From an uncultured Legionellales bacterium (GTDB lineage Bacteria; Pseudomonadota; Gammaproteobacteria; JAHCLG01): a DNA stretch of 56,525 nt. Below the pieces are notes generated by a model that saw nothing but the letters and a program-made list of their open reading frames with translations, ran no database searches and was not told where the DNA came from. This document shows, one piece after another, positions 22,967 through 23,542 of the stretch. The stretch's first letter is position 1. Each line of letters starts with the position of its first letter. A program made the translations under genes and the position numbers. The stretch spans positions 1-56,525 of the forward strand of contig CAYGTS010000002.1 in the NCBI GenBank assembly GCA_964352905.1. The letters run 5' to 3'.

Positions 22967-23144
22967 GTATCTATTCAGCAAATTTTAGTTGAATTTACTG
23001 AGAACGTTCAGATTTGGCGATAAAAACAGCGAAAATATTTTTGAGAAAGCGCAGTTTATGAGTTATAAATGAGCATTTCGATAAAAGATTTTCGCTGTTT
23101 TTAGCCCAAATATGGACGTTTCCGTCTACTTGGTGAATAGTTAC
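22967..23144 (+). mobile_element. family-1 full-length element (178 bp)
   Basis: Tips are GTATCTATTCAGC and GGTGAATAGTTAC. 8-bp repeat AAAAAGGT at 22959-22966 and 23145-23152. Confidence 0.9.
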
Positions 23145-23158
23145 AAAAAGGTTTAAAA

Positions 23159-23542
23159 ATGTTTAAGAGTTTAACTTCAATTGCTTTGATTGCAGCTTGT
23201 TGCGCCTTAGCAGGATGTGATATTTATGAAGTGCCTGGTGATTACACTTATGATAGCTCAACTTATGTAAGCCGTCCTTTTTGGGGACACCATCATCATA
23301 GGCACTACTACCCACCTGCTAGCAGTAACACAACGGTTACACCGGTGGTTCCTGCGCAACCACGACCTGCAAGCGGTACTGTAGTAACGCCGGTGGTTCC
23401 TGCGCAACCGCGCCCTAGTAGTGGTACTGTTGTAACGCCGGTGGTTCCTGCGCATTCTTCAGCAGGTAACAACCCAGCGGGCGTTATCAAAAAAGAAGTT
23501 GCCATTGCTAAGCGCATCAACAGGCATTTTCCGGCCGCTTAA
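23159..23542 (+). CDS. hypothetical lipoprotein with a His run and 16-aa tandem repeats
   Basis: Lipobox ALAGC, a HHHHRH run and about three repeats of TVVTPVVPAQPRPxSG. An intrinsic terminator follows the gene. Confidence 0.65.
   Translation: MFKSLTSIALIAACCALAGCDIYEVPGDYTYDSSTYVSRPFWGHHHHRHYYPPASSNTTVTPVVPAQPRPASGTVVTPVVPAQPRPSSGTVVTPVVPAHSSAGNNPAGVIKKEVAIAKRINRHFPAA
23333..23467 (+). repeat. in-frame 45-48-bp tandem repeat (about 3 units) inside the lipoprotein gene
   Basis: Units at 23333-23377, 23378-23425 and 23426-23467 encode TV(V)TPVVPAQPRPxSG. Confidence 0.9.

Follow-up and report, generated by a model that had tools for sequence, protein, structure and literature searches.

The 178-bp repeat E178, present in five full-length copies in the window (the whole stretch of 56,525 nt analysed here, from an uncultured Legionellales bacterium), is a MITE, and we consider it likely that the promoter-like motif carried by all of these copies is a stretch of the hairpin core that is not used as a promoter, the neighbouring genes being transcribed otherwise. 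The initial annotation had proposed that the core holds a sigma-70 promoter which, in three of the five copies, drives adjacent orphan genes. The part of this interpretation that concerns the mobility of the element and the orientation of its copies stands, whereas a functional promoter for the adjacent genes is left unsupported by the consensus scan, the matrix rank, the conservation, the hairpin covariation, the orientation of the copies and the alternative routes of transcription. Judging from its sequence, E178 is best described as a new MITE family with a mediocre promoter-like motif.

The full-length copies occupy spacers of all three types. Copy 1 (7348-7525, plus strand) is nested in an E174-type MITE (7237-7339 and 7534-7599) within the convergent spacer before rpoH, and is bounded by the 8-bp duplication GAAATTTT at 7340-7347 and 7526-7533. 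For copy 2 (18398-18575, minus strand) the spacer is again convergent, with murU on one side and a PIN-toxin gene on the other; the ORF of the latter extends 95 nt into the element, and no clear duplication is seen. Copy 3 (22967-23144, plus strand), delimited from the repeat family and its alignment as a 178-bp MITE in the form of a long imperfect palindrome, is the only one in a tandem spacer; its 8-bp duplication AAAAAGGT, at 22959-22966 on the left and 23145-23152 on the right, contains the Shine-Dalgarno-like AAGG of the downstream lipoprotein gene. Copy 4 (48101-48278, plus strand), in a divergent spacer, is flanked by GGTGGTTA (8 bp; 48093-48100 and 48279-48286) and adjoins a fragment of an older element at about 48287-48339. 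The divergent spacer that separates parE from gene 54156 contains copy 5 (53871-54048, plus strand), at the apex of a surrounding GTATC...GTTAC element whose two parts are at 53836-53870 and 54049-54131. Two left arms are cut by the limits of the window, one at its start (1-49, minus strand) and one at its end (56474-56525, plus strand), and at least seven further copies were located on other contigs via antisense pseudo-ORFs. The superfamily includes forms of 178, 119/120 and 79 nt and a sister family of 174 nt, with GTAAC/GTATC...GTTAC-type ends and inner arms in common. As the initial annotation had noted, the 119/120-nt variants lack the core: those at 24044-24162 (119 nt, minus strand, 8-bp duplication AAAATTAG) and 43830-43949 (8-bp duplication GAATTATT) share the E178 termini around a different core without the motif. 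The E174 sister family (5400-5571 on the plus strand, 29710-29883 and 34506-34679), with CAGTAATTCCCG-type ends and 9-bp duplications, has the inner arms and the apex TAAATGAGCA in common with E178 but is devoid of TTGAGA.

Perfect target-site duplications of 8 bp and of variable sequence flank three of the five E178 copies; the two 119/120-nt copies likewise have 8-bp duplications, and the four E174 copies (three intact and one split) all have duplications of 9 bp. The terminal inverted repeats pair GTA(A/T)CT..TC with GA..AGTTAC in helix 1, and further inverted arms are provided by GAACGTTCAGATTTGG and CCAAATATGGACGTTC. Removal of copy 1 together with one of its duplications restores an intact E174 that is colinear across the junction with the paralogue at 29710-29883, and the reconstructed site is thus an internal empty site which, with the perfect duplications at three copies, bears out the mobility ascribed to the element. 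E178 therefore has the attributes that define a MITE, namely a length below about 600 bp, the lack of a transposase gene, terminal inverted repeats, duplications of fixed length, dispersed copies and an empty site. Within the window, neither a transposase nor a parent insertion sequence for E178 was found. Its GTAA-type ends and 8-bp duplication are reminiscent of IS66, a link for which a search of the literature gave no confirmation. MITE-derived DNA amounts to at least 2,292 nt (4.1% of the window, and some 36% of its non-coding DNA), and elements are held by 6 of the 10 convergent, 3 of the 10 divergent and 7 of the 29 tandem spacers.

When public collections were searched for relatives of the element with exact patterns, a 27-mer from the core had no match in GTDB representative genomes, a 23-mer and an arm-plus-terminus pattern had none in JGI metagenomes, and none was given by blastn of the element in a plasmid collection. 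The arm motif was absent from 81 loci (ParE-related loci and L001) and, even with three mismatches allowed, from the closest relative, L002. From these sequence comparisons, the superfamily is apparently undescribed before and restricted to its lineage. The closest genome, a Legionellales MAG whose ParE is 82% identical, keeps parE-parC and the bPH-domain gene, and it offers no orthologous empty site at the MITE-bearing spacers because other genes occupy those spacers there. In the Logan contigs of ERR3534981 and ERR3534998 the sequence agrees fully with that of the window, and the assembly breaks off within the MITE.

The motif TTGAGA-N17-TATAMA has exactly five matches in the window, at 7422, 23041, 48175 and 53945 on the plus strand and at 18501-18473 on the minus strand, in agreement with the initial annotation, and none across 100 dinucleotide-preserving shuffles. 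Each match is found at the equivalent position within one full-length copy of the 178-bp repeat; the five are therefore not independent of each other, and their excess over chance reflects the repeat, not the motif. To call the site near-consensus was an overstatement. The -35 matches the consensus at five of six positions, and the -10, which reads TATAAA in the copies at 22967 and 48101 and TATACA in those at 7348, 18398 and 53871, at five or four of six, the T at position 6 (-7) being missing in every copy; the overall match is 10/12 (or 9/12), with the optimal spacer of 17 nt. The A/T-rich tract GAAAATATTTT lies immediately upstream, and in AT-rich bacteria sites of 10/12 or 9/12 with a 17-nt spacer and such a tract can give some transcription. 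Assessed by hexamers and spacer with A at -11 and T at -7, the motif falls short of the sigma-70 pattern. A consensus sigma-70 scan never calls TTGAGA-N17-TATA(A/C)A, which is explained by the -10 without T at position 6 (-7). In our own sigma-70 position-weight matrix, the motif ranks 79th (TATAAA) or 197th (TATACA) among 112,988 positions, the site of copy 3 (23041-23069, plus strand), which the scan leaves uncalled, scoring 9.41 at rank 79. At these two scores, shuffles lead one to expect 43 and 106 sites per strand, against 31-48 and 87-110 observed, and by arithmetic from the matrix an equally good site is present on either strand of a random 178-bp stretch in about 1/5 of cases for TATAAA and about 2/5 for TATACA. 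The matrix does carry signal, as 35% of its top 20 hits are intergenic against a background of 10%; for ranks 80-200 the proportion is 15%. Among other readings of the same stretch, neither an extended -10 (TGn) nor a shifted -10 register yields A at -11 together with T at -7 when the sequence is read, a mirror-image promoter on the opposite strand is precluded by the imperfection of the palindrome at that place (TTATCG, wrong spacing), and a FliA-like reading of TTCGATAA matches the upstream box at only four of eight positions. A second weak candidate, TTGGCG-N16-TATTTT (matrix score 8.06), overlaps the motif.

The promoter hexamers show no conservation beyond that of the rest of the core, with 1 variable column of 12 in the two hexamers against 13 of 108 elsewhere in it. 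The element is predicted to fold into a long hairpin of -60 to -92 kcal/mol on the sense strand and -50 to -89 on the antisense strand, with -61.1 kcal/mol and z = -7.7 for copy 3 (z-scores of -7.3 and -7.7 were computed). The hairpin alignment has 98.8% of its cells in pairs; both sides are changed in five pairs (9 cells), and paired changes this strong were obtained in 0 of 500 shuffles. All six bases of the -10 belong to the 3' arm of the apical hairpin GTTTATG-AGT-TATAAAT (23054-23070, plus strand; helix 3, columns 93-99 with 103-109), and the -35 lies within helix 2. In each of the 12 known copies, the sole variable base of the -10 is matched by the corresponding change in its pairing partner, which lies in the spacer, and pair 95-107 is G-C in three copies and T-A in two. 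These paired changes rest on few independent events, and they could reflect template-switch correction of quasi-palindromes rather than selection. We infer an absence of selection on the motif, whose identity across copies would result from recent descent from one master and from a palindrome that is kept paired, not from promoter use.

The geometry given by the initial annotation is right when checked against 23159, 48382, 54156, rpoH and murU: the copies at 48101 and 53871 point toward genes 48382 and 54156, the copy at 7348 is directed into the 3' end of rpoH (7607-8524, minus strand), and the copy at 18398 into that of murU (17588-18226, plus strand). The count of three copies out of five directed into genes is nonetheless uninformative. 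In a divergent spacer either orientation faces a gene start, so that nothing can be learned from the copies at 48101 and 53871; in a convergent spacer neither orientation does, and the same therefore holds for those at 7348 and 18398. Only the tandem copy at 22967, which is in sense, is informative (n = 1). The TATAAA variant is carried by two of the three gene-facing copies and by neither of the two antisense-facing ones, a distribution that is not significant with n = 5.

The transcription of the three genes has better explanations than the motif. Directly upstream of copy 3 lies an orphan secreted-protein gene (22547-22957, plus strand), whose 136-aa product had no homologue but itself among 5.8 billion proteins, and downstream an orphan lipoprotein gene (23159-23542, plus strand) with the lipobox LAGC, the ATG of which at 23159 is separated by 14 nt from the end of the copy at 23144. 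If copy 3 and one duplication are removed, the stop codon at 22955-22957 and this ATG come to lie 15 nt apart, and ORF 22547 is probably the first gene of an operon split by the MITE. Upstream of ORF 22547 the predictions include no strong promoter, the best score being 8.6. Most likely, the lipoprotein gene would be transcribed by read-through from the upstream cistron, copy 3 having been inserted in the former 15-nt operon junction. For gene 48382, a candidate promoter of 11/12 that is much superior to the motif, TTGACA-N17-GATAAT (48345-48373, plus strand; rank 2 in the window), is located downstream of copy 4. Upstream of the nested MITEs, TTGGCA-N18-TACAAT (53732-53761, plus strand; rank 8 in the window) is, on the evidence of its sequence and position, the likely native promoter of gene 54156, since without the 296 nt of MITE it would stand about 99 nt from the ATG. 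As no more than 24 nt lie between the outer MITE and this ATG, any promoter of 54156 must be inside or upstream of the MITEs; if it is the native one, the 5' leader would be about 390 nt long and contain two nested hairpins. It is these two candidates of their own that genes 48382 and 54156 would most likely use.

We thus favour a reading in which E178 is a non-autonomous transposon that generates 8-bp target-site duplications and would be moved in trans by a cut-and-paste transposase, presumably of the DDE type, that is not encoded in the window. The motif would be one stretch of the AT-rich hairpin core; with A for T at -7 it is mediocre as a sigma-70 site, and at most it may support weak transcription outward. 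Where the element is fully transcribed, its long hairpin would be more likely than the motif to matter.

It is possible, although we hold this view only tentatively, that the element acts at the RNA level on read-through transcripts, either as an RNase III-type processing or decay site or as a bidirectional terminator-like block that insulates its neighbours, the promoter-like motif being incidental or at most restarting transcription. Such an action would be consistent with a hairpin that is very stable on both strands and kept intact by paired changes, with an inner stem GGCG...CGCC between ATAAAAAC and GTTTTTAG that has A-run and T-run flanks in the alignment, and with the occupation of 6 of the 10 convergent spacers; precedents are known in Correia elements cut by RNase III, ERIC cut by RNase E and the terminator-like SPRITE (PMC10969869). 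A terminator scan, however, gives no hit within the elements, whose stem, being long, bulged and rich in AT, differs from that of typical intrinsic terminators, and neutral insertion would likewise lead to enrichment in convergent spacers. The proposal that the core is a functional outward sigma-70 promoter, co-opted for the genes of the lipoprotein (23159), a membrane protein (48382) and a secreted protein (54156), we regard as unlikely. It accounts for a motif that all copies have, with its 17-nt spacer and upstream A/T-rich tract, and for the gap between the MITEs and the ATG of 54156, which is too short to hold a promoter; a start about 7 nt past the -10 would yield a transcript with the 3' arm only, so that the big hairpin would not form, and MITE-borne promoters have been described for Correia, MITEAba12, BrickBuilt, QMITE1 and SonMITE_1 (PMC10969869). 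It is at odds with a -10 that lacks T at -7 and goes uncalled by the scan, with a matrix rank at chance level, with hexamers that show no extra conservation and whose sole variation is a hairpin-compensating change, and with an orientation that is informative in one copy only. The presence of a rank-2 promoter between the element and gene 48382, the insertion of copy 3 in a 15-nt operon junction and the preference of the superfamily for convergent spacers over gene starts argue in the same direction. We give very little credence to the idea of a portable 'stop-and-restart' cassette, in which a bidirectional terminator-like hairpin would be coupled to a loop promoter that restarts transcription in one direction. 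The restarted transcript would carry one arm only and escape the hairpin, insertions like copy 3 would place a lineage-specific lipoprotein gene under independent control, and the upkeep of the palindrome by paired changes would amount to selection on a dual function.

Two further explanations change the nature of the repeat itself, and both seem to us highly improbable. One is that E178 belongs to the REP/REPIN-type repeats, owing its spread to a RAYT (HUH tyrosine transposase) that acts on single-stranded hairpins, and is not a DDE-type MITE. The E178 and E174 families do share an invariant subterminal GTAG (CTAC on the plus strand), the long hairpin has paired changes, and GTAG-tagged repeats occur in Coxiella (PMC3733652). 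This GTAG, however, is contained in a small loop instead of ending a short palindrome, the window proteins scanned (part of the ORFs) included no RAYT, and nine insertions show perfect 8- or 9-bp duplications of variable sequence. IS200/IS605-type transposition is not known to make such duplications. The other is that the repeat encodes a structured small RNA or a small protein, which could be suggested by the antisense frame 0 that is open in 5/5 copies and by eight predicted 'proteins' of 46-92 aa which derive from the antisense frame in public records. One open frame among six is a weak argument in copies of a single ancestral sequence, and the ORFs inside the element are short, differ between copies in their starts and ends, which are derived from the flanks, and match no protein family. 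Nothing in Rfam reaches the gathering score either, the best model being the generic hairpin mir-5014 with 27 bits against a threshold of 101.

In practical terms, the superfamily fills about a third of the non-coding DNA and breaks short-read assemblies; it also creates spurious annotated proteins and alters the ends of murU and of the PIN toxin gene. If the motif were to work after all, E178 would be one more MITE that gives promoters to its neighbours, a concept that is not new, given that Correia elements have already been shown to do so and that the same has been proposed of QMITE1, MITEAba12 and others; such activity would help to understand gene regulation in this uncultured Legionellales lineage. 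A more general lesson is that the exact recurrence of a motif in every copy of a repeat is no evidence of function.

Among known systems, QMITE2 of Coxiella burnetii (Wachter et al. 2018; PMC5896051) has a host in the same order, Legionellales, as that of E178. With its 150-190 bp, mostly 7-9 bp variable direct repeats, terminal inverted repeats and GTAG, it is matched by E178 as far as a description of architecture goes, and both are predicted to form very stable hairpins. QMITE2 is located mainly in 3' UTRs and intergenic DNA, to which the occupation of 6 of the 10 convergent spacers corresponds in the window; it has truncated REP-like derivatives, and one of its copies gives the -10 element to the sRNA CbsR16 (PMC5896051). 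QMITE2 is a target of IS1111, whereas no insertion sequence was seen in the E178 window, and the E178 superfamily is denser, as it makes up at least 4% of the contig, while in the Dugway strain the two QMITE families jointly reach 0.91%. The Correia elements (CREE) of Neisseria are, like E178, small palindromic MITEs in high copy number. They duplicate the dinucleotide TA and have terminal inverted repeats of about 26 bp starting with TATAGTGGATT and promoters at the element ends, in contrast to the 8-bp duplication, the GTAAC/GTATC ends and the candidate promoter in the apical loop region of E178. They are also mostly found just upstream of genes, while the E178 superfamily prefers convergent spacers. 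Their sigma-70 promoters have been shown experimentally to drive neighbouring genes, and their transcripts are cleaved by RNase III (PMC10969869). The promoter proposal of the initial annotation thus has its precedent in Correia. ERIC/IRU, RUP/BOX/SPRITE and RPE are, as E178 is, imperfect intergenic palindromes of about 100-200 bp with nested insertions, clustering and occasional extension of ORFs, and E178 has no sequence relationship to them; they influence mRNA stability or termination (PMC10969869). Finally, REPIN/REP sequences resemble E178 in that they are repeats that form hairpins, conserve a GTAG and show paired changes between the arms, but their spread leaves no target-site duplication, whereas E178 has left 8-bp duplications and an empty site.

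A pattern search of the window for TTGAGA-N17-TATAMA returned five matches in 56,525 nt (plus strand: 7422, 23041, 48175 and 53945; minus strand: 18501-18473) and none in 100 shuffles, and all five lie at the equivalent place in the five full-length copies of the 178-bp repeat E178, as the initial annotation had described. Repeat alignment places these copies at 7348-7525, 22967-23144, 48101-48278 and 53871-54048 (+) and at 18398-18575 (-), with two further copies truncated at the ends of the window (1-49 and 56474-56525). Because every match sits in a repeat copy, the excess over chance measures the repeat and not five independent occurrences. 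Copies 22967 and 48101 have TATAAA as their -10, the remaining three TATACA; the 119/120-nt variants have their ends in common with E178 and a different core. The neighbouring genes are also those first named: rpoH (7607-8524, -) beside copy 1, murU (17588-18226, +) beside copy 2, a lipoprotein gene with an LAGC lipobox (23159-23542, +) beside copy 3, the gene of a 377-aa protein (48382-49515, +) beside copy 4 and that of a 157-aa protein with a signal peptide (54156-54629, +) beside copy 5. None of the last three products matches an NCBIfam or Pfam family; within the lipoprotein gene a 48-nt unit is repeated three times in tandem (23336-23479, 16-aa units VTPVVPAQPRPxSGTV). Near copy 1, gene 5717-7231 (+) encodes a 504-aa product in which HEAT repeats (residues 95-163) are joined to a PemK/MazF-like toxin domain (306-400), an unusual fusion without an NCBIfam family.

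The mobility attributed to E178 is upheld and can be made more precise. Perfect 8-bp direct repeats, differing in sequence, flank three of the five copies (GAAATTTT, AAAAAGGT and GGTGGTTA), and 8-bp duplications are found at both 119/120-nt copies (AAAATTAG, GAATTATT). Copy 1 is nested within a fourth element of the related 174-nt family E174, whose other members (5400-5571, 29710-29883, 34506-34679) have 9-bp duplications. Removal of 7348-7525 with one GAAATTTT fuses 7237-7347 with 7534-7599 into an intact E174, colinear with the paralogue 29710-29883 and identical to it around the junction; this reconstruction is an internal empty site. Given the duplications and the empty site, E178 is a MITE, small, with inverted ends GTA(A/T)CT...AGTTAC and without a transposase gene, inserted by a staggered-cutting transposase; a REP/REPIN model is rejected on account of the target-site duplications. 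The 178-, 119/120- and 79-nt forms have their ends in common, and E174 and E178 share the inner arms, a subterminal CTAC (GTAG) and the apex TAAATGAGCA, TTGAGA being absent from E174. The superfamily covers at least 2,292 nt (4.1% of the window, ~36% of its non-coding DNA) and occupies 6/10 convergent, 3/10 divergent and 7/29 tandem spacers. Its members cluster and nest: E174 lies beside a 79-nt-type element at 5399-5667 (region 5399-5670), E178 within E174 at 7237-7599, and another GTATC...GTTAC element (53836-54131) carries E178 at its apex.

Each E178 copy is predicted to fold as one long hairpin, with sense-strand energies of -60 to -92 kcal/mol over the five copies (copy 22967, -61.1 kcal/mol, z = -7.7; copy 53871, -66.4 kcal/mol, z = -7.3). 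In the alignment 98.8% of cells are paired, falling to 36-48% when the partner is shifted by 1-3 columns, and five pairs (9 cells) have changed on both sides, a number reached in 0/500 shuffles. The -35 hexamer (columns 80-85) lies within the main helix, and all six bases of the -10 (columns 103-108) belong to the 3' arm of the apical helix GT(G/T)TATG-AGT-TATA(C/A)AT. The sole variable base of the supposed promoter (C/A) changes jointly with its pairing partner (G/T): of the five window copies and seven more, located on other NCBI contigs through antisense-strand pseudo-ORFs and read from translated sequences, eight have the T..A pair and four the G..C pair, without exception. The feature that is kept is the pairing and no particular -10 sequence; either selection acting on the hairpin or the correction of quasi-palindromes by template switching could account for the paired changes.

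The initial annotation had read the motif as a near-consensus outward promoter, exapted by the adjacent genes. A consensus scan demanding A at -10 position 2 and T at position 6 never listed it in any region scanned, since neither TATAAA nor TATACA has a T at -7. In a position-weight matrix built for this analysis, not a curated tool, with E. coli hexamer frequencies of the Harley-Reynolds and Lisser-Margalit type, the two forms score 9.41 and 8.34 and rank 79th and 197th of 112,988 positions. Sites at these scores number 43 and 106 per strand in shuffled sequence and 31-48 and 87-110 in the real one, so that by arithmetic from these rates an equally good site is expected by chance on either strand of ~1/5 (TATAAA) or ~2/5 (TATACA) of 178-bp stretches. 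The matrix is nevertheless informative in this genome: 35% of its 20 best sites are intergenic vs a 10% background, with 15% for ranks 80-200. The hexamers are conserved no better than their surroundings (1/12 variable columns vs 13/108 in the rest of the core). As for three of five copies facing genes, the orientations are as described but uninformative except at copy 22967. In the divergent spacers of copies 48101 and 53871 a gene start is faced whichever way the element inserted, and in the convergent spacers of copies 7348 and 18398 neither orientation faces one; since only copy 22967 is in a tandem spacer, the orientation evidence amounts to one observation, whose prior probability is one half. 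None of the tests run supports the promoter and exaptation reading, and several (scan, matrix rank, conservation, orientation) weaken it. The 17-nt spacer, the 5/6 match at -35 and an A/T-rich tract just upstream speak for some activity, and a second weak candidate, TTGGCG-N16-TATTTT, overlaps the motif; detectable promoter activity is possible, if rather doubtful.

That any of the three genes would use the motif as its main, selected promoter appears quite improbable, and better explanations than the motif are suggested by the sequence in each case. For gene 48382, the candidate TTGACA-N17-GATAAT (48345-48373, +; 11/12) lies downstream of the MITE and is the second-best site in the window; the true start codon is probably ATG 48400, after GAGAAGAAAG. 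Around this gene (47542-53666), the order parE-parC-(variable gene)-bPH-domain gene is common to the window and the closest Legionellales MAG (L002), with bPH proteins 74% identical; the slot between parC and bPH is filled in the two genomes by unrelated genes of opposite orientation, which makes the 377-aa membrane protein a lineage-specific insertion. For gene 54156, the candidate TTGGCA-N18-TACAAT (53732-53761, +; rank 8) lies upstream of two nested MITEs, an outer element (53836-53870 and 54049-54131) with copy 5 at its apex; without these 296 nt it would be ~99 nt from the ATG. The case most favourable to the initial annotation is gene 23159. Once copy 3 and one AAAAAGGT are taken out, the stop of an orphan secreted-protein gene directly upstream (22547-22957, +) and ATG 23159 are 15 nt apart, a gap that looks like the spacing of a co-transcribed pair split by the MITE, and the AAGG Shine-Dalgarno is supplied by the duplicated octamer on both sides of copy 3. 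An internal promoter could matter here if the hairpin blocks read-through. The inner stem GGCG...CGCC, flanked by ATAAAAAC and GTTTTTAG, resembles, we infer, a bidirectional terminator; it was not called by the terminator scan. We propose that E178 is selfish DNA moved in trans, and that the motif is most likely a by-product of its AT-rich palindromic core, identical among copies through descent and palindrome maintenance; effects on neighbours, if any, would more likely come from the hairpin in read-through transcripts.

Exact-pattern scans of GTDB representative genomes, JGI metagenomes, ParE-related loci and L002 did not find the E178 family, and blastn gave no match in a plasmid collection; the host, an uncultured bacterium, has a ParE that shares 82% identity with the one in MAG ERP117304_co1_75. 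The contigs with the seven extra copies presumably belong to the same genome. The five window copies of E178 all have an open antisense frame, from which public annotation derives 'proteins' of 46-92 aa on this contig and seven other NCBI contigs (10-15 kb), which are almost certainly annotation artefacts (e.g. 53875-54111 (-); P0002-P0009). Genes are also affected. A short GTAAC-type MITE (18223-18287; duplication G[C/A]TTTGAA, 7/8 matching) begins 3 nt before the end of murU and supplies its stop codon TAA (18224-18226) with its first bases. A PIN-domain toxin ORF (18481-19038, -; TIGR00305, E = 2.8e-12) extends ~95 nt (31 aa) into copy 2, its C-terminus being encoded by the MITE; its annotated TTG start is probably too far upstream. 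The first ~35 residues of ORF 23627-24145 (-) are encoded by the 119-nt MITE 24044-24162, and its real start is probably an internal Met before the signal-peptide-like MLVKYQICCVGLALLL. For a Mur-ligase-family ORF (54647-55987, +) the annotated start overlaps with an E174 fragment (54651-54689), so translation probably begins farther downstream. Three Logan contigs of the same organism (L001, L082, L083; ERR3534981, ERR3534998) end inside MITEs on both gene sides; the repeat family fragments short-read assemblies of this lineage.

By architecture, the family closest to E178 appears to be QMITE2 of Coxiella burnetii, set beside it by description only, whose host, like that of E178, belongs to the Legionellales. 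QMITE2 elements span 150-190 bp, carry a GTAG motif and have 23-29-bp TIRs and direct repeats (7-9 bp). Truncated, REP-like forms exist; the elements lie in 3' UTRs or between genes, and the sRNA CbsR16 obtains a -10 element from one of them (PMC5896051). The Correia element of Neisseria is a functional precedent for the idea of a MITE-borne promoter, and reports of promoter-like sequences also exist for MITEAba12, BrickBuilt, QMITE1 and SonMITE_1 (PMC10969869).
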